This document shows positions 1,956 to 7,010 of a DNA stretch of 7,010 nucleotides, in pieces. The notes below the pieces were generated by a model. The model searched no databases. It saw only the letters and a list, made by a program, of their open reading frames with translations, and had not been told where the DNA came from. Where the stretch lies: assembly GCF_000008565.1 (NCBI RefSeq), contig NC_001264.1:405339-412348 (forward strand). Direction: 5' to 3'. The stretch comes from Deinococcus radiodurans R1 = ATCC 13939 = DSM 20539. GTDB taxonomy: Bacteria; Deinococcota; Deinococci; Deinococcales; Deinococcaceae. Numbering within the stretch: position 1 is the stretch's first letter; each line of letters starts with the position of its first letter. The translations under genes and the position numbers were made by a program.

Positions 1956-2857
1956 TCAGCGGTGCTGGTTGCGGCTGTCCTCGGGGGTGCGGTTGTCCTC
2001 CTGATCGGGGAATTCGTCGCCGCGCACCCGGTAGTAGCGCCGCAGCCACTGCCCCAGCCCGCTCAGGTCGGGAAACAGGGTCCGCTCGGTGATGTTCGCC
2101 TGATCGAGCCGGTCGCGCACTTCCCACTTCAGCTCGGCGGGCAGCAGCACACGCCGGGCGGCGCCGTCGTATTGGCCCAGCCACGTTTCTAGGTCGTCCT
2201 CGGGGTTGGACAGCATGGAAAACAGCGCCGACTGCTGCACGATGCGCTGGTCGAGCGAAGGTGGCTCCAGAAACATCAGGAAAGGGCGCCCGCTTTCACG
2301 CTCCATGCGTTCGAGCCAGTGGATGTCGGCGTCGAAGCTCAGGCCCTGAAGCCTCTCCCCCGCGCTGAACGTCGCCAGCATGTCGGTGGTAAACACACTG
2401 CTGCCCTAAACACACTGCTGCCCTCATGCCGCAGCAGGTGCGAGAGCGGCCCCGGCAGCGCGGCGTTGGTCGTCGCCATGTCAAGCATCCAGATCACGCC
2501 GTCTTTGTCGTAGTCGCGCTCCTCGGCGGTGGCAAAGTGCAGCGCGACAAGCGGCGAATAGCTCCAGTCGAGCAGCCGGGTCGGCAACCCGTGGTGCTGC
2601 CCGAGCGCCAGCCAGTACCACAGCACATTCTCGGTCTGCACGTTCGCCTGCGTGTACTTGCGAAACGCGCGTACCAGATGCCGCTCGATATCGCGCGTTT
2701 CCCCGGCGAGGCGCTGAAGCGAGGTCGTCAACCGGGCAGCGCGGCCCTGGCCCCGAAACACGTAGGGCGAGCGAAAACGCCGCAGCTCCGCGTTCCAGGA
2801 ATTCTGGTTGAGCACCTCAAGCAATTCGAGCCAGCTGGCAACCCGAATGTCTTCCAC
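1956..2857 (-). pseudogene. FRG-domain protein gene, frameshifted by a 17-bp tandem duplication
   Basis: There are two consecutive - strand ORFs in different frames. The N-terminal fragment is 2857->2339 (GTG start, 172 aa) and the C-terminal fragment is 2396->1956 (146 aa). The N-terminal fragment has RSPYVFRGQGRA and LALGQHHGLPTRLLDWSYSPLVALHFA. The C-terminal fragment has PPSLDQRIVQQSALFS. Together these are the conserved blocks of the Pfam FRG domain family. Removing one 17-nt repeat copy joins them as ...HEGSSVF|TTDMLATF..., giving 294 codons. Confidence 0.8.
2390..2424. repeat. Perfect tandem duplication of a 17-bp unit (AAACACACTGCTGCCCT x2)
   Basis: Read directly from the sequence: 2391-2407 is identical to 2408-2424. 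One extra T of microhomology (2390, 2407, 2424) makes the duplicated tract 35 nt. Confidence 0.95.
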
Positions 2858-2862
2858 GGCCT

Positions 2863-4042
<1,180 letters not shown>

Positions 4043-4050
<8 letters not shown>

Positions 4051-5218
4051 CGGCACTCTCGCGCAGAGGGGCCGGGGCCGCGCTCTGCTGGGTCTGAACG
4101 GCGCTTTCCATCGCCGCCTGCATCTCATTCCAGGTGCGGTCCCACGACAGCCCAGCGAGGTAGGCGTCGGCCCGCTGCTGGCGCTCGGTGGCCTGCGCGG
4201 TGCCGGCTTCGTCCAGTGCTGCCGCACAGGCGGCTTCGAAGGCGTCTACCCCGTCCGCCACGCGCACCATCTCTCCTTCCCCGTAGGGCCGGATCACGTC
4301 ACGAATGCCGGTCGACACCACCGGCACGCCCGCCGCCAGATATTCGGGCGTCTTGGTCGGGCTGATGAACTCGGTGGACGGATTGAGCGCAAAGGGCAGC
4401 AGCGCCACGTCCCAGTGGGCGAGGTACTGCGGCAACTCGGCATAGGTCTTCTGCCCCAGGTAATGCAGGTTGGGCGCCTGCGGCAGCTCGGCGGGATCAA
4501 TCTTAACCACCGGCCCCAGCAGCACGATCTGCCATTCGGGGCGGCGGCGAGCAAGTTCACCGATCAGGGCGGTATCGAAGCGCTCGTCGATCACACCGTA
4601 AAAGCCGAGACGCGGACGCGGCAGCTCACGCTGGTCCGCTGGATCTGCTAGATCTTGCCGCGCCTGTGCGAAGTGCTCGACTTCCACACTGGAGGGAAAA
4701 GGATACACATTGCCGTGTTGCAGGCACTTGGCCTCGTACAGACGGTGCCCGCCGGTGAAGACCACGCCGGCCTGCTCAAACAGTTGCTGCTCGCGTTCAC
4801 GCAGTTCGGGAGGAGCGCCCCTAAAGTTGGCAAGTTCGTCCATGCAGTCATAGACCGTCAGGCGCGGAGTGAGGCCCGCCGCCACCGGCAGCTCCATCGG
4901 CGTATAGACCCACAGGTCGTAGGTGTCCAGGCCTTCGCTCTGTACCAGTTGCGTGAGCAGCCGCGCGGTGCGGGCCTGGGATTCTGCTGGGCTGTGCCCA
5001 GACTCGACGTGGGGCGTGCAGACCGTCACGCCGCTGGCATCTGTCACCATTTCCAGTCTGTCGGCGTCCTCACCAAACACCGGCTCTTCAATAAAAAACA
5101 CCCGGCGGGTGCGAGCGGCGCGGGTCATCAAATGTTGCGGCCTCTGAAAAACAAAGTTCCAGCGGAGATGCGAGAGCACCAGCAAAGCCGGAGCCTGGGT
5201 TGAGCATGAAGCGACCAC
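4043..5218 (-). CDS. GT-B fold glycosyltransferase (GT4/TuaH-like family), about 391 aa
   Basis: Stop TGA at 4045-4043. The N-terminal block LLVLSHLRWNFVFQRPQHL and the C-terminal block EFISPTKTPEYLAAGVPVVSTG are typical of TuaH-like family-1/4 glycosyltransferases. The preferred start is GTG at 5218-5216, which is preceded by GGAAGGAGG (AGGAGG is the complement of 5225-5230) with a 6-nt spacer. The longest ORF starts at ATG 5290 but has only GGAAG directly abutting the ATG. Confidence 0.85.
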
Positions 5219-5427
5219 AACGGGCCTCCTTCCATCGTGAGGGCGAAATTGTTCAGGTGGGGGGCAAAGTGGACGGAGAGCGTGGCTCATCTTCCAGTCA
5301 GGAGCTTAGTGCAAGCGCTGAAATGAGAAGGTGGGATATGTGAGAAATAAAGCACTTTGATGCTCAGATGGGAAAGAGACAAAGAAAATATTGACCTTAA
5401 CTGGCCCAATGTCATTTAGAAATCCAA

Positions 5428-5447
5428 TTCCACAAAGTGCCACAGGC
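5428..5447 (+). repeat. Iteron-like repeat copy 1 (TTCCACAAAGTGCCACAGGC)
   Basis: Exact 20-mer shared with copy 2. It contains two CCACA pentamers 10 bp apart (5430-5434 and 5440-5444). Confidence 0.85.
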
Positions 5448-5542
5448 AGGCAGGAATACTAGGAAAAGAGCGTTTTTGTAAACGATTGAACCCTAGATAA
5501 GCGTCACTGACTGCTGCCACATCTACGTGGAGGGCAAGAATT

Positions 5543-5562
5543 TTCCACAAAGTGCCACAGGC
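5543..5562 (+). repeat. Iteron-like repeat copy 2 (TTCCACAAAGTGCCACAGGC)
   Basis: Identical to copy 1 and starts exactly 115 bp after it. Together with the two preceding T residues it reads TTTTCCACA (5541-5549), one mismatch from the canonical DnaA box TTATCCACA. Confidence 0.85.
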
Positions 5563-5657
5563 GAGGACTAGGCAAGACAATCCAGGTGGAGCTCGGCGTC
5601 AAATTCAGACCTAAAAACCGTGAAGCTCGCCGCCCCACAGTTTTGAGCGAGCAGGAA

Positions 5658-5677
5658 CTCCACAAAGTGCCGCAGGC
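5658..5677 (+). repeat. Iteron-like repeat copy 3 (CTCCACAAAGTGCCGCAGGC, 18/20)
   Basis: Starts exactly 115 bp after copy 2 and has two substitutions. It shares the extra 3' bases AG with copy 1 and ends 3 nt before the Rep-like gene stop codon (5681-5683). Confidence 0.8.
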
Positions 5678-5680
5678 AGC

Positions 5681-7010
5681 TCAGGCCTGTTCCCAGGCTT
5701 GAATTTGTGCCTGAGCGGCTGCCGTTTCCTTGTTAAGTAGCCCGATGAGGTCCAGACTGCTCACCCGTTCCGCAACATAGAGCGCAGCGGCGCGGTCCCG
5801 CAGTTCACGGCGCTCCGCCGTATCGTCGTACTGGCCGAGCAAGATCACATGCGCCGAGCGGGCTTTGCGGGGAACAGTACTGGTTTCCGAGTCGCCTTCT
5901 TCGCTCGTCTCCTGAGTGGGCTTAGCTTGAGCACGGGCTTCGTCGGTGGTCTTTTCAGCCACGGTCAGCAGCGTGTCGTACTTGTCCGGCGATTCCAGAA
6001 TGTCGCTGAGCATCCCAGCGCGGTTACGAATCTTGGAGCGGTAGTCAGTCTGCAACAGGGCTTCTAAGACGCTCACAGCCCTCTGGACGGCCTCCGAGCC
6101 ATATGCCTGGGCCAGAGTGAGGGCTCGCCCCCCGCTGACCCCGTAGCGGGCCAGGACGGCGATGGCCTCCGGGTCGACTGCCGCGCTTTTGGTGCTGGCA
6201 AAGGTGTAGTGCACCATGCGCGTTTTGCCTCGCCCCCGGTATTCCACCTCACGCAGAAAACCTATGGCGATCAATTCCTCGTGCGCTGGCTTGAGCGCCC
6301 GCATGACTGTATCGAGACGCATCTCGTGCATCCCCAGATGGGTCGCCCAGGTGTTGAGCGGCACAGCGAAGGCCAGCACCGGCTCCTGGCCGACCTGATC
6401 CCGCTGAAAAGACAGCGTGCGGAACAGATTGCGGGTCAGAGGCTGACTCAGTCGCGCCAGCATCTCAAAATCGAGCGGCAAAATGTGTCCGGCCCGGATA
6501 TTGCTGATCAGGCTGTCGTCAAGCCGGATAGCGAGAAGTGTCTGGGCACGCCACTGCCCGGCATTGGTCACATCCGCCGTATTGTCTTCAGCCCCCAGGC
6601 GGACAATCAAACTGAAGCTTACGCTCCGCCACCGGTGGCGGCTGCCGTCATACCAGCTGTCGGTCACGTCGTATGCGGTGTGTTGCAATCGCCGCAACGA
6701 AGCTTGCAGATTGCGATAAGCACGGGCACTGGGCGTAATCCCGCTGAGCTGCAAAAGTTCGCGGGTCGTCAGACGAACGGTGTCATCCTGCGGCATCCCC
6801 TGCAACACCACAGCGTTGACGAGTCCAAGGAGAACATCGTTGTCCACCCCATGAGGAACCAACGCGTTACGAGGCGCAGTGCAGCGCACGCTGACGCCTC
6901 CAATGGCATCGAAGGCAATGTGCCGGGCCCATTCGTAGAGCTCGGTGCGGTTGGGAGCGAGCACCAGGTTCAGCCGTGCCAGATTTGGCTCGTCGTGCCT
7001 GAGTGCCAGC
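5681..7010 (-). CDS. Replication initiator protein A (RPA/RepA)-like plasmid or secondary-replicon initiator. The 5' end is probably off window.
   Basis: Stop TGA at 5683-5681. The frame stays open beyond the GTG at 6964 to the window edge (LALRHDEPNLARLNL|VLAPNRTELYEW...). The pattern matches the RPA family as I recall it: an NLARL-type N-terminus, HGVDNDVLLGLVNAVVLQG, TTRELLQLSGITPSARAYRNLQASLRRLQHTAY, PLDFEMLARLSQPLTRNLFRTLSF, and a winged-helix-like EELIAIGFLREVEYRGRGKTRMVHYTF. A further C-terminal module contains KIRNRAGMLSDIL. The call is by recollection of family motifs, not by a search. Confidence 0.65.
   Translation of the reverse strand, partial: LALRHDEPNLARLNLVLAPNRTELYEWARHIAFDAIGGVSVRCTAPRNALVPHGVDNDVLLGLVNAVVLQGMPQDDTVRLTTRELLQLSGITPSARAYRNLQASLRRLQHTAYDVTDSWYDGSRHRWRSVSFSLIVRLGAEDNTADVTNAGQWRAQTLLAIRLDDSLISNIRAGHILPLDFEMLARLSQPLTRNLFRTLSFQRDQVGQEPVLAFAVPLNTWATHLGMHEMRLDTVMRALKPAHEELIAIGFLREVEYRGRGKTRMVHYTFASTKSAAVDPEAIAVLARYGVSGGRALTLAQAYGSEAVQRAVSVLEALLQTDYRSKIRNRAGMLSDILESPDKYDTLLTVAEKTTDEARAQAKPTQETSEEGDSETSTVPRKARSAHVILLGQYDDTAERRELRDRAAALYVAERVSSLDLIGLLNKETAAAQAQIQAWEQA

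Follow-up and report, generated by a model that had tools for sequence, protein, structure and literature searches.

A clade-wide 17-bp tandem duplication splits an FRG-domain gene of Deinococcus radiodurans into two overlapping ORFs that both remain under purifying selection

D. radiodurans is the best-studied radiation-resistant bacterium, and the locus considered here, located on its chromosome II, comprises genes DR_A0366 and DR_A0365, which have so far been treated as an authentic frameshift or as two hypothetical proteins. The window, i.e. the whole stretch of 7,010 nucleotides that was analysed, carries both of them together with their neighbours, and its features relevant to this study are the following.

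2408–2424, minus strand: copy 1 of the 17-nt unit, AGGGCAGCAGTGTGTTT, 5' in gene orientation (sequence, Tandem Repeats Finder)
2391–2407, minus strand: copy 2 of the 17-nt unit, 3' in gene orientation (sequence, Tandem Repeats Finder)
2404–2408, minus strand: copy-1/copy-2 junction (sequence, predicted 16S-tail pairing)
2339–2857, minus strand: upstream ORF DR_A0366, 172 aa, AAF12501.1 / WP_010889625.1 (ORF list, protein look-up)
1956–2396, minus strand: downstream ORF DR_A0365, C-terminal half of the ancestral protein (ORF list)
2339–2407, minus strand: dual-frame 69-nt stretch from copy 2 to the stop of the upstream ORF, both frames open (sequence)
2863–4050, minus strand: glf, UDP-galactopyranose mutase, DR_A0367, directly upstream, its stop codon 5 nt away from the start of the FRG gene
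4043–5128, minus strand: family 1 glycosyltransferase, first gene in the conserved GT1-glf-FRG order (gene neighbourhood)
1905–1945, no strand assigned: A-run, hairpin and T-run (sequence), with a terminator-like site at 1921–1933

DR_A0366 consists of 150 native residues followed by a 22-aa out-of-frame tail that stops at TGA 2341–2339, and copy 1 read in this frame encodes (E)GSSVF, the final native residues of the N-terminal fragment. The frame of DR_A0365 is -1 relative to that of DR_A0366; it is opened by a GTG (2396–2394) in copy 2, in the original frame (GSSVF-TTDML), and gives 146 aa from this GTG or 141 aa from ATG 2381. The convergent SDR gene and DR_A0365 are probably separated by a bidirectional terminator formed by the element at 1905–1945, and a promoter scan found no sigma-70-like promoter within the gene. 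The UniProt accession Q9RYF4 corresponds to this neighbouring SDR.

By direct string comparison, AAACACACTGCTGCCCT is a perfect 17-mer tandem pair at 2391–2407 and 2408–2424. Tandem Repeats Finder reported the same repeat at 2390–2424 (period 17, 2.1 copies, 100% match, no indels), one additional flanking base also matching so that the repeat covers 35 nt in all, whereas about 2e-6 perfect tandem repeats of at least 17 nt are expected by chance in 7010 bases of the same composition. As its length of 17 nt is not divisible by 3, the duplication is itself the lesion that splits the gene, and the computed deletion of one copy yields a 294-codon ORF reading ...HEGSSVFTTDML.... The first-pass annotation of this DNA, made from the letters alone, had recognized both minus-strand ORFs, the back-to-back duplication, its role as the lesion and the repaired frame, all of which are borne out; its view of the event as very recent, as an artefact or as a reversible switch is not supported, as detailed below.

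Over its full length (100% coverage), the repaired protein of 294 aa can be aligned with Deinococcus FRG-domain proteins of 292–314 aa, its identity being 91% to the D. wulumuqiensis-type proteins and 70% to that of D. deserti, and a motif that is invariant or nearly so in the family (E145-G146...F150-T151...L155) spans the cut. The Pfam FRG model (PF08867, gathering cut-off 25 bits) scores 96.8 bits on the repaired protein and 98.2 bits on the upstream fragment, but this match covers only residues 31–117, wholly in the upstream fragment; the downstream fragment has no PF08867 match with the Pfam HMM, yet carries family-conserved blocks. This corrects the earlier statement that the joined protein holds all conserved FRG-domain blocks. 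HMMs of the PADLOC candidate defence family PDC-S15 also match the protein (E 5.9e-47, and another with E 5.9e-37 over residues 2–267). PMC9503650 assigns the FRG domain to the ART superfamily, with a predicted role as NADase or immune effector. The product is predicted to be ADP-ribosyltransferase-superfamily-like; its structural similarity to ART toxins is weak, and the genomic context of the gene is a galactofuranose/glycosyltransferase operon. In an AlphaFold2 model of the 91%-identical intact orthologue (pLDDT 89.7, pTM 0.88), both halves contribute strands to a single compact fold. According to this model and the alignment, the cut interrupts the compact fold and the conserved motif instead of falling between domains, and is closely followed by a variable loop of low confidence (157–167).

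The frameshifted 172-aa product was recovered from 286 contigs and 344 blocks of assemblies (NCBI, ENA, Logan), including AAF12501.1 of the 1999 R1 genome and the complete assemblies CP015082, CP031501, CP038980 and OV024759, and the exact repaired protein was absent from the ~15 billion proteins covered by an exact-protein look-up. The repaired protein was also used to scan genome contigs; the only hit was a distant Gemmatimonadota relative, D. radiodurans itself being missed, and the strain comparison therefore rested on exact-protein look-ups. In the JGI metagenomes, neither one or two copies between fixed flanks nor copy 2 with the right flank gave a match. Two copies were present in all D. 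radiodurans-clade loci recovered (L010–L030), the sample outside R1 being about a dozen contigs from several studies with ~95% DNA identity to R1 across the locus. Alignment of the orthologous loci placed a single copy in all D. wulumuqiensis-type loci, at exactly the duplication site. A transposon footprint or target-site duplication was considered and rejected, this sister species having an uninterrupted single unit and no other difference at the site. The two-copy haplotypes differ from one another by dS of ~0.1–0.28 and at ~5% of nucleotides across the locus, so that the lesion they share cannot be described as very recent. Their nearest differences lie 23–24 nt from the repeat on each side, which makes a recent recombinational sweep of the duplication allele unlikely, and this candidate was also set aside. 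As judged from these comparisons, the duplication is a real, old and stably inherited lesion, which goes back to a single event on the D. radiodurans stem, later than the divergence from D. wulumuqiensis.

The copies were also described as identical and free of further decay, which is true for the R1-type alleles only. In six loci (L016, L017, L018, L027, L028 and L030), copy 1 bears a T>G change at 2408 (TTT>TTG, F150L), hereafter the TTG allele, and in three others (L021, L022 and L026) a T>G change at 2414 (AGT>AGG, S148R), hereafter the AGG allele; L017 and L018 have in addition a 57-bp in-frame deletion by which ATG 2381 is lost and the GTG retained. Copy 2 is unchanged in every two-copy haplotype examined. 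GTG 2396 is kept in all two-copy lineages, the D. wulumuqiensis codon at this position being GTC.

Purifying selection on both fragments had been overlooked in the first-pass annotation. Among the two-copy lineages, DR_A0366 accumulated 38 synonymous and 4 nonsynonymous changes (binomial p against neutrality 4e-19) and codons 151–270 of DR_A0365 accumulated 24 and 7, respectively (p 7e-10). Codon-position periodicity gave p 5e-14 for the upstream ORF, and of the 31 sites that segregate downstream, 24 are third codon positions in the restored frame (p 6e-7). Pairwise dN/dS was 0.00–0.06 upstream; for codons 151–270 it was 0.016–0.10 where dS exceeded 0.18 and reached ~0.3 in little-diverged pairs. 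In the same lineages, the intact neighbours glf, GT1 and SDR show dS of 0.10–0.23 and dN/dS of 0.01–0.09, with glf, taken as the intact-gene baseline, at 0.11–0.19 and 0.01–0.07. In these substitution patterns, purifying selection on both halves matches that on the intact neighbours, which indicates that the locus is still in use. Constraint is 2–3 times looser downstream than upstream, and two lineages carry changes at invariant residues (D243H, L262V); the C-terminal piece may therefore be in the course of being lost in some lineages. The 69-nt stretch at 2339–2407 contains 1 segregating site against ~6.7 expected (Poisson p ~0.009, a post hoc test). This site (2370), the sole substitution of the overlap, is synonymous downstream (ACG>ACC) and changes R to P in the upstream tail.

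Taken together, these data lead us to consider a functional split gene as the best explanation of the two-copy locus, a reading that we hold with moderate confidence. According to this proposal, the duplication did not destroy the gene but turned one 294-codon FRG-domain gene into the overlapping DR_A0366 and DR_A0365, both of which are still maintained. Ribosomes would make the N-terminal 150 residues followed by a 22-residue junk tail, and the C-terminal piece would be started separately at the GTG within copy 2, so that it would begin with fMet/Met-FTTDMLATFSAGER. The N piece would then end with ...EGSSVF and the C piece start with (M)FTTDML, no native residue being lost from either because the duplicated segment encodes GSSVF. 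The two chains would presumably reassemble into the compact fold predicted for the intact orthologue; since the cut lies within a single compact fold and a conserved motif, this reassembly is an assumption. Separate initiation at GTG 2396 and reassembly of both chains are what we infer, and several observations bear on the split-gene reading. Both ORFs are under purifying selection in their own frames, as expected for a split gene, and copy 2 is invariant whereas copy 1 tolerates S148R and F150L, F150 being nearly invariant in the family. In addition, both ORFs are transcribed: in an RNA-seq data set (Table S7, PMC8533742), DRA0365 and DRA0366 are both quantified and change significantly (p 1.7e-18 and 6.6e-8). 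An iTRAQ proteomics supplement has no entry for either fragment, a comparative-genomics supplement has none for DR_A0365/DR_A0366, and literature searches by locus names and UniProt accessions found no paper on the two genes.

The copy-1/copy-2 junction provides a further element. The R1 sequence, U-AGGG, is a weak Shine-Dalgarno-like motif located 7 nt upstream of GTG 2396 and at the same time gives rise to a TAG in the -1 frame (2408–2406); in the TTG allele the junction reads G-AGGG, with a GAGG core, and the TAG becomes GAG. The predicted 16S-tail pairing before GTG 2396 amounts to -3.3 kcal/mol in R1, whereas the TTG and AGG alleles reach -6.1 and -6.5, respectively, on a par with the stronger of the annotated starts in this window, which have -4.6 to -7.4 kcal/mol; the R1 value is weaker than the gene-wide background mean of -4.6. 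ATG 2381 has no Shine-Dalgarno match in R1. A pairing of -6 kcal/mol or better results from 6 of the 60 possible single changes, both natural copy-1 SNPs among them, although the argument is weak when restricted to T>G changes (2 of the 5 possible, p ~0.1). Moreover, Shine-Dalgarno-like motifs also promote frameshifting and bypassing, so that the same evidence is compatible with recoding.

Translational recoding of the two-copy mRNA into a full-length protein is indeed the main alternative, which we regard as unlikely. It could proceed by a -1 shift, by a +2 slip of tRNA-Val on GUGUG in copy 2, or by a 17-nt hop in which the peptidyl-tRNA passes from a copy-1 codon to the identical copy-2 codon, for example from UUU before the rare AGG to UUU followed by ACC. 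The hop would recreate the ancestral 294-aa protein exactly, with the junction peptide HEGSSVFTTDMLATFSAGER; the alternative recoding junction would read ...SSVFRAAVFTTDML..., and the +2 slip would give AAVFTTDMLATFSAGER. Several features are in agreement with this possibility: the downstream frame is -1 relative to the upstream one with both halves selected, the take-off and landing codons are identical by construction in R1 (GGC AGC AGT GTG TTT twice), frame 0 past copy 1 meets the rare codons AGG, TTA and AGA (3.4, 0.5 and 0.5 per 1000), and U UUA is preceded, at a distance of ~10 nt, by a Shine-Dalgarno-like motif (AGGG or GAGGG). The single segregating site of the dual-frame stretch fits as well, suppression of synonymous changes being typical of recoding signals. 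Against it, neither hallmark of a programmed -1 frameshift was found, as no X XXY YYZ heptamer occurs in frame 0 between the -1-frame TAG and the TGA at 2341–2339, and no stimulatory downstream RNA structure appears, the 171-nt local fold being no stabler than shuffles (z -0.88). Furthermore, the common TTG allele breaks the UUU-to-UUU match without sign of decay in L016, and bacteria very rarely use bypassing or +2 shifts. Precedents in which recoding allows a gene interrupted by a frameshift to be expressed are Sulfolobus fucA1 (PMC1616953) and the correction described as 'savior indel' (PMC5009743).

A stronger form of the recoding idea, which we consider improbable, is that the two-copy state is actively maintained and the full-length FRG/ART-like protein comes from rare recoding only, the duplication acting as a translational gate. 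The 17-nt hop, or a -1/+2 shift, between the identical copies would then keep a possibly toxic predicted NADase at a very low or conditional level. Loss of one unit from a perfect 17-bp tandem repeat is expected to be far more frequent than mutation at single sites, yet no lineage has reverted to one copy across ~5% sequence divergence. If true, this would represent bacterial chromosomal repeat-mediated bypassing or frameshifting conserved across a species-level clade.

It had also been suggested that the repeat is a reversible on-off switch, with one-copy ON and two-copy OFF states interconverted by slippage or recombination and selection acting on ON cells. Slippage can delete a perfect tandem repeat precisely, both halves should be under purifying selection if ON cells matter, and the TTG allele, read one base out of register, is again a perfect duplication of 17 bp (GAGGGCAGCAGTGTGTT twice), which could reflect a second, independent duplication event. 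We nevertheless regard such a switch as very unlikely. No one-copy allele occurs among the D. radiodurans-clade haplotypes or the 344 assembly blocks, the repaired protein is absent from the proteins searched, and in the assemblies the two repeat states are not found together among close relatives but are perfectly partitioned, two copies across the radiodurans clade and one across wulumuqiensis. The AGG allele, whose copies are not identical, persists in three contigs. Moreover, with a microhomology of just 1 nt, the 17-bp duplication should hardly ever be formed anew, making the forward direction of the switch implausible.

An ordinary functionless pseudogene, in which the apparent constraint would be an artefact of recent recombinational spread of the lesion into diverged backgrounds, is strongly disfavoured. 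The locus is mosaic (L023 is R1-like mid-gene, and L030 has TTG on R1-like flanks), so recombination does move segments; the changes at invariant residues or the further deletion in a few lineages, and the blank Hua and Hua 2016 identifier column for both ORFs (Table S7, PMC8533742), also point in this direction. However, the differences within 23–24 nt of the repeat on both sides mean that a shared tract of at most ~80 bp would be needed in every lineage, and R1 and L019 are diverged in both halves (dS 0.15 and 0.23). In about a dozen haplotypes, ~880 bp contain no other frameshift or stop, and the sole further indel is in frame. Lastly, dN/dS equals that of the intact neighbours, at 0.00–0.10 in well-diverged pairs rather than near 1, and the lesion is not limited to one strain. 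A sequencing or assembly artefact hiding a single-copy genome, in favour of which no evidence was found, is refuted for practical purposes by the identical two-copy sequence, with its frameshifted product, in the 1999 R1 record, in later complete assemblies and in hundreds of independent Logan/ENA run assemblies making up the 344 blocks, and by diverged wild lineages with their own SNPs inside the repeat.

An ancient, clade-fixed and still selected lesion provides a testable case of gene fission by tandem duplication or of translational recoding. It also provides a naturally divided form of an uncharacterised FRG protein (ART-like, candidate defence), and this form could help to define the parts of the fold needed for activity. 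More generally, identical copies and otherwise intact fragments do not imply a recent lesion, the age of which is revealed only by the comparison of lineages.

The locus can be compared with several known systems. Its strong HMM matches (PF08867 at 96.8 bits, PDC-S15 down to E 6e-47) relate it to the FRG/PDC-S15 family; however, PDC-S15 is a candidate single-gene anti-phage system, whereas the Deinococcus gene belongs to a conserved GT1-glf-FRG arrangement with no obvious defence island. As in phase-variable contingency genes switched by repeat copy number, the coding sequence holds a tandem repeat with a unit length not divisible by 3. Here, however, the long unit is present only twice, the whole clade is fixed for one state, some lineages have copies that differ from each other, and an ON allele was not observed. 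The alpha-L-fucosidase gene fucA1 of Sulfolobus solfataricus (PMC1616953) similarly consists of two ORFs in -1 relation with a short overlap, and has intact single-ORF orthologues. It differs by a canonical slippery heptamer and experimental proof, where our locus has neither heptamer nor stimulatory structure. In phage T4 gene 60, a 50-nt translational bypass takes place between matched GGA codons. The likeness lies in matched codons flanking an untranslated gap that holds a Shine-Dalgarno-like motif, and in a poorly decoded codon after the potential take-off site, overlapped by a UAG in another frame. On the other hand, the gap here is 17 nt long and simply repeats the sequence before it, neither a take-off hairpin nor a nascent-peptide signal can be recognized, and the best codon match is lost in the common TTG allele; a bypass of the gene 60 type at this locus is purely hypothetical. 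Finally, the locus resembles gene fissions caused by frameshifts, in which both ORFs stay selected and work as a two-chain protein: here too, overlapping ORFs cover one ancestral protein, both being selected and transcribed, and the second ORF has a putative start codon of its own and a Shine-Dalgarno-like motif. Compared with the known fissions, the cut falls here within one compact fold, not between domains, and assembly of the two chains is presumed; the split was made by a short tandem duplication, whose duplicated codons complete both ends and supply the putative restart GTG.

The 17-mer AAACACACTGCTGCCCT was found twice back to back, at 2391-2407 and 2408-2424, by sequence reading and direct comparison, and Tandem Repeats Finder reported the same element (2390-2424, period 17, 2.1 copies, match 100%). 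The chance expectation for a perfect tandem repeat this long is ~2e-6 per window of such size and composition. Two ORFs meet at the repeat, the reading frame of DR_A0365 being -1 relative to that of DR_A0366, and a terminator-like element lies beyond them.

2339-2857, minus strand: DR_A0366, upstream ORF of 172 aa (AAF12501.1 / WP_010889625.1, "FRG domain-containing protein")
1956-2396, minus strand: DR_A0365, downstream ORF of 146 aa
1905-1945, in the gap that separates DR_A0365 from the SDR gene convergent with it: A-run, GC hairpin and T-run, which looks like a bidirectional intrinsic terminator

When one 17-nt copy was taken out, a 294-codon ORF was obtained that reads ...HEGSSVFTTDML... 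The repeat and the split ORFs reported in the first-pass annotation were thus right in every detail, and the duplication is, as proposed there, the cause of the frameshift, the one-copy repair giving a full-length family member. Thousands of FRG-domain proteins match the repaired protein, and the best of them (292-314 aa) cover 100% of its length, with identities of 91% for D. wulumuqiensis-type proteins and 70% for D. deserti. The homologue alignment is continuous over the junction, as had been anticipated, with E145, G146, F150, T151 and L155 invariant or nearly so; these comparisons indicate that the repaired gene is a real gene. The claim that it joins all the conserved FRG blocks stood in part: the C-terminal half is conserved within this FRG subfamily, and one PADLOC PDC-S15 model covers residues 2-267, but the Pfam FRG model spans residues 31-117 only, so that the Pfam domain lies wholly inside the upstream fragment. 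A scan of species-representative genomes with the repaired protein returned neither D. radiodurans nor any other Deinococcus; its peptide patterns stand verbatim in the window, and masking of this region in the collection scanned is possible.

The window is 100% identical to D. radiodurans chromosome II (NZ_OV024759.1, 284301-291310) and adjoins the RepA-like initiator and ParA/ParB genes of this replicon. Upstream of DR_A0366 and DR_A0365, and on their strand, lie a family 1 glycosyltransferase gene (GT1) and glf (UDP-galactopyranose mutase), and D. wulumuqiensis has GT1-glf-FRG in the same order and orientation as D. radiodurans (window 1956-5128) with the FRG gene intact; annotation also places glf beside FRG in D. 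deserti, D. proteolyticus and D. taeanensis. This conservation suggests that the gene is tied to galactofuranose glycan synthesis, an odd fit with the candidate phage-defence listing of the family. The window has a single low-GC stretch (46% GC), lying between the glycosyltransferase gene and the RepA-like initiator gene (5681-6964, minus strand). It carries three 24-nt direct repeats (5426-5449, 5541-5564 and 5656-5679; core TCCACAAAGTGCCACAGGC, 83-100% identical, spaced by exactly 115 nt), possible iterons or origin repeats for chromosome II. An imperfect in-frame 12-bp tandem repeat near the glf 3' end (2911-2934, CGCCACCACCTG twice, 83% match) is probably trivial.

The exact frameshifted 172-aa product occurs on 286 contigs (344 blocks of the collection), including the 1999 R1 record and the complete assemblies CP015082, CP031501, CP038980, OV024759 and JBHDLK01, and it recurs in many run assemblies from Logan and ENA; the exact repaired 294-aa sequence is absent among ~15 billion proteins. 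A sequencing or assembly artefact, one of the readings first offered, is effectively ruled out by this recurrence of the two-copy product in the 1999 record and in later complete assemblies. When DNA was retrieved for the variant 172- to 174-aa products of the 90% cluster, two copies were found at every D. radiodurans-clade locus (R1 type, Deinococcus sp. PESE-13 and ~10 metagenome or run contigs from several studies), and all D. wulumuqiensis-type loci held a single unit, AGGGCAGCAGCGTCTTT. Across the locus the non-R1 lineages are 94.8-95.6% identical to R1, with differing sites 23-24 nt from the repeat on both sides, and D. wulumuqiensis is ~85% identical. Since the two copies are clade-wide, in lineages this diverged, and D. 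wulumuqiensis has a single unit, the comparison points to a duplication that arose once, after the D. wulumuqiensis split and before the D. radiodurans clade diversified, and not to the very recent event first suggested.

Copy 2 was without variation in any two-copy locus examined and copy 1 was polymorphic, with TTT>TTG in six contigs and AGT>AGG in three (gene orientation). The TTG allele (window 2408, last base of copy 1) is itself a perfect 17-bp tandem duplication with the register shifted by one base (GAGGGCAGCAGTGTGTT twice), turns the -1-frame TAG that straddles the copy junction (2408-2406) into GAG and is found with more than one flanking haplotype; either a selectively favoured SNP or an independent duplication event could account for it. 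Codon 31 (window 2765-2767), which adjoins the invariant RS motif, was hit twice independently, by CCC>CGC (P31R) in PESE-13 and by CCC>CTC (P31L) in L019/L020, two further clade loci. In one metagenome lineage (L017/L018), a further 57 bp are deleted directly behind copy 2 (equivalent to window 2330-2386); the deletion is bounded by 7-nt microhomologies (CCGACAT), is in frame for DR_A0365, removes 19 codons and ATG 2381 and keeps GTG 2396. L262V, a change at an invariant residue, is found in this lineage too, so loss of its C-terminal piece may have begun.

Because all two-copy lineages descend from the duplication, the differences among them post-date it, and the substitution rates of both halves can be set beside those of intact neighbours.

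Substitution rates in the FRG gene and its neighbours
FRG upstream half, codons 1-150: dS 0.085-0.24, dN/dS 0.00-0.06
FRG downstream, codons 151-270, restored frame, pairs with dS >0.18: dS up to 0.28, dN/dS 0.016-0.10
Intact neighbours glf, GT1 and SDR: dS 0.10-0.23, dN/dS 0.01-0.09

Counted on the clade, changes were 38 synonymous and 4 nonsynonymous upstream and 24 and 7 downstream (binomial p against neutrality 4e-19 and 7e-10, respectively). Codon position 3 of the appropriate frame held 71 of the 88 segregating sites, and in the downstream half 24 of 31 were third positions in the restored frame, equivalent to second positions in the upstream frame (p 6e-7). No further frameshift or stop codon was present in any haplotype examined. 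This pattern argues that both halves are under strong purifying selection, the gene not decaying, and that each is translated in its original frame and is useful to the cell. DRA0365 and DRA0366 were quantified by RNA-seq over a time course of growth, in which both changed with high significance (PMC8533742, Table S7), and both ORFs are therefore transcribed. From the sequence comparisons, we interpret the locus as an ancient, clade-wide gene split by tandem duplication.

How the C-terminal piece is made admits several readings, of which we rank first, and hold to be somewhat probable, a split gene with separate initiation at GTG 2396. This codon of copy 2 would give a product (M)FTTDML..., the upstream product would end in ...EGSSVF plus 22 junk residues, and neither piece would be short of native residues because GSSVF is encoded twice. 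The D. wulumuqiensis codon at this position is GTC. In R1, the predicted pairing between the 16S tail and the UAGGG before GTG 2396 is weak, at -3.3 kcal/mol (-4.6 to -7.4 kcal/mol at the window's annotated starts), and the natural copy-1 variants lift it to -6.1 (UGAGGG, spacing 7 nt) and -6.5 kcal/mol. Only 6 of the 60 possible single-base changes reach -6 kcal/mol or better, both natural variants among them, a coincidence that is weaker (~0.1) if only T>G changes are counted. In the upstream frame these variants are nonsynonymous (S148R, and F150L at a near-invariant position), which fits a copy 1 dispensable at the protein level, with copy 2 supplying the conserved VF(T) residues. Over the 69-nt dual-frame stretch a single substitution was seen, silent in the downstream frame and changing R to P in the tail of the upstream product.

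Translational recoding that restores the downstream frame seems unlikely, no X XXY YYZ heptamer being found and the RNA fold at the junction not being unusually stable (z -0.88), although the frame would be restored if tRNA-Val slipped by +2 on GUGUG or if the ribosome hopped 17 nt from one codon to its identical partner, such as UUU before AGG (AGG 3.4 per 1000 here). The dual-frame stretch is also unusually invariant (1 segregating site vs 6.7 expected, p ~0.009, post hoc), which is compatible with an RNA-level signal or dual coding. The reversible on-off switch of the first-pass annotation is disfavoured and very improbable, every clade locus examined being two-copy and the proteins searched holding the frameshifted product in place of the repaired one; each of the remaining readings is just as doubtful.

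As a rule, slippage removes short perfect tandem duplications at a rate far above that of single-site mutation. No reversion was seen in any two-copy lineage over a divergence of ~0.1 synonymous substitutions per site per lineage, so either the deletion rate is unusually low here or the two-copy state is itself favoured; in the latter case, the locus would be making a potentially toxic enzyme in split form or behind a recoding gate.

An AlphaFold2 run on the intact 91%-identical orthologue, with an alignment of 79 sequences, gave a model (pLDDT 89.7, pTM 0.88) that predicts one compact alpha/beta fold, with strands 2-5, 32-37, 96-99 and 120-126 in the N half and 188-191, 205-210 and 228-233 in the C half. 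In this model the cut at residues 150/151 falls just ahead of helix 152-156 and a variable, low-confidence loop (157-167), where some homologues are gapped by 19 residues. Conserved positions of the alignment that are putative active-site residues lie in both halves (R35/G36 and S101 in the N half; E192, D197, R199 and Q203 in the C half), so that activity would need both pieces. Foldseek against the PDB gave no significant match, and its weak top matches were nearly all ADP-ribosyltransferase (ART) toxins. As a lead and not as proof, these agree with published work that places FRG in the ART superfamily and sees in it a possible NADase or immune effector (PMC9503650); they also fit the PADLOC candidate family PDC-S15.
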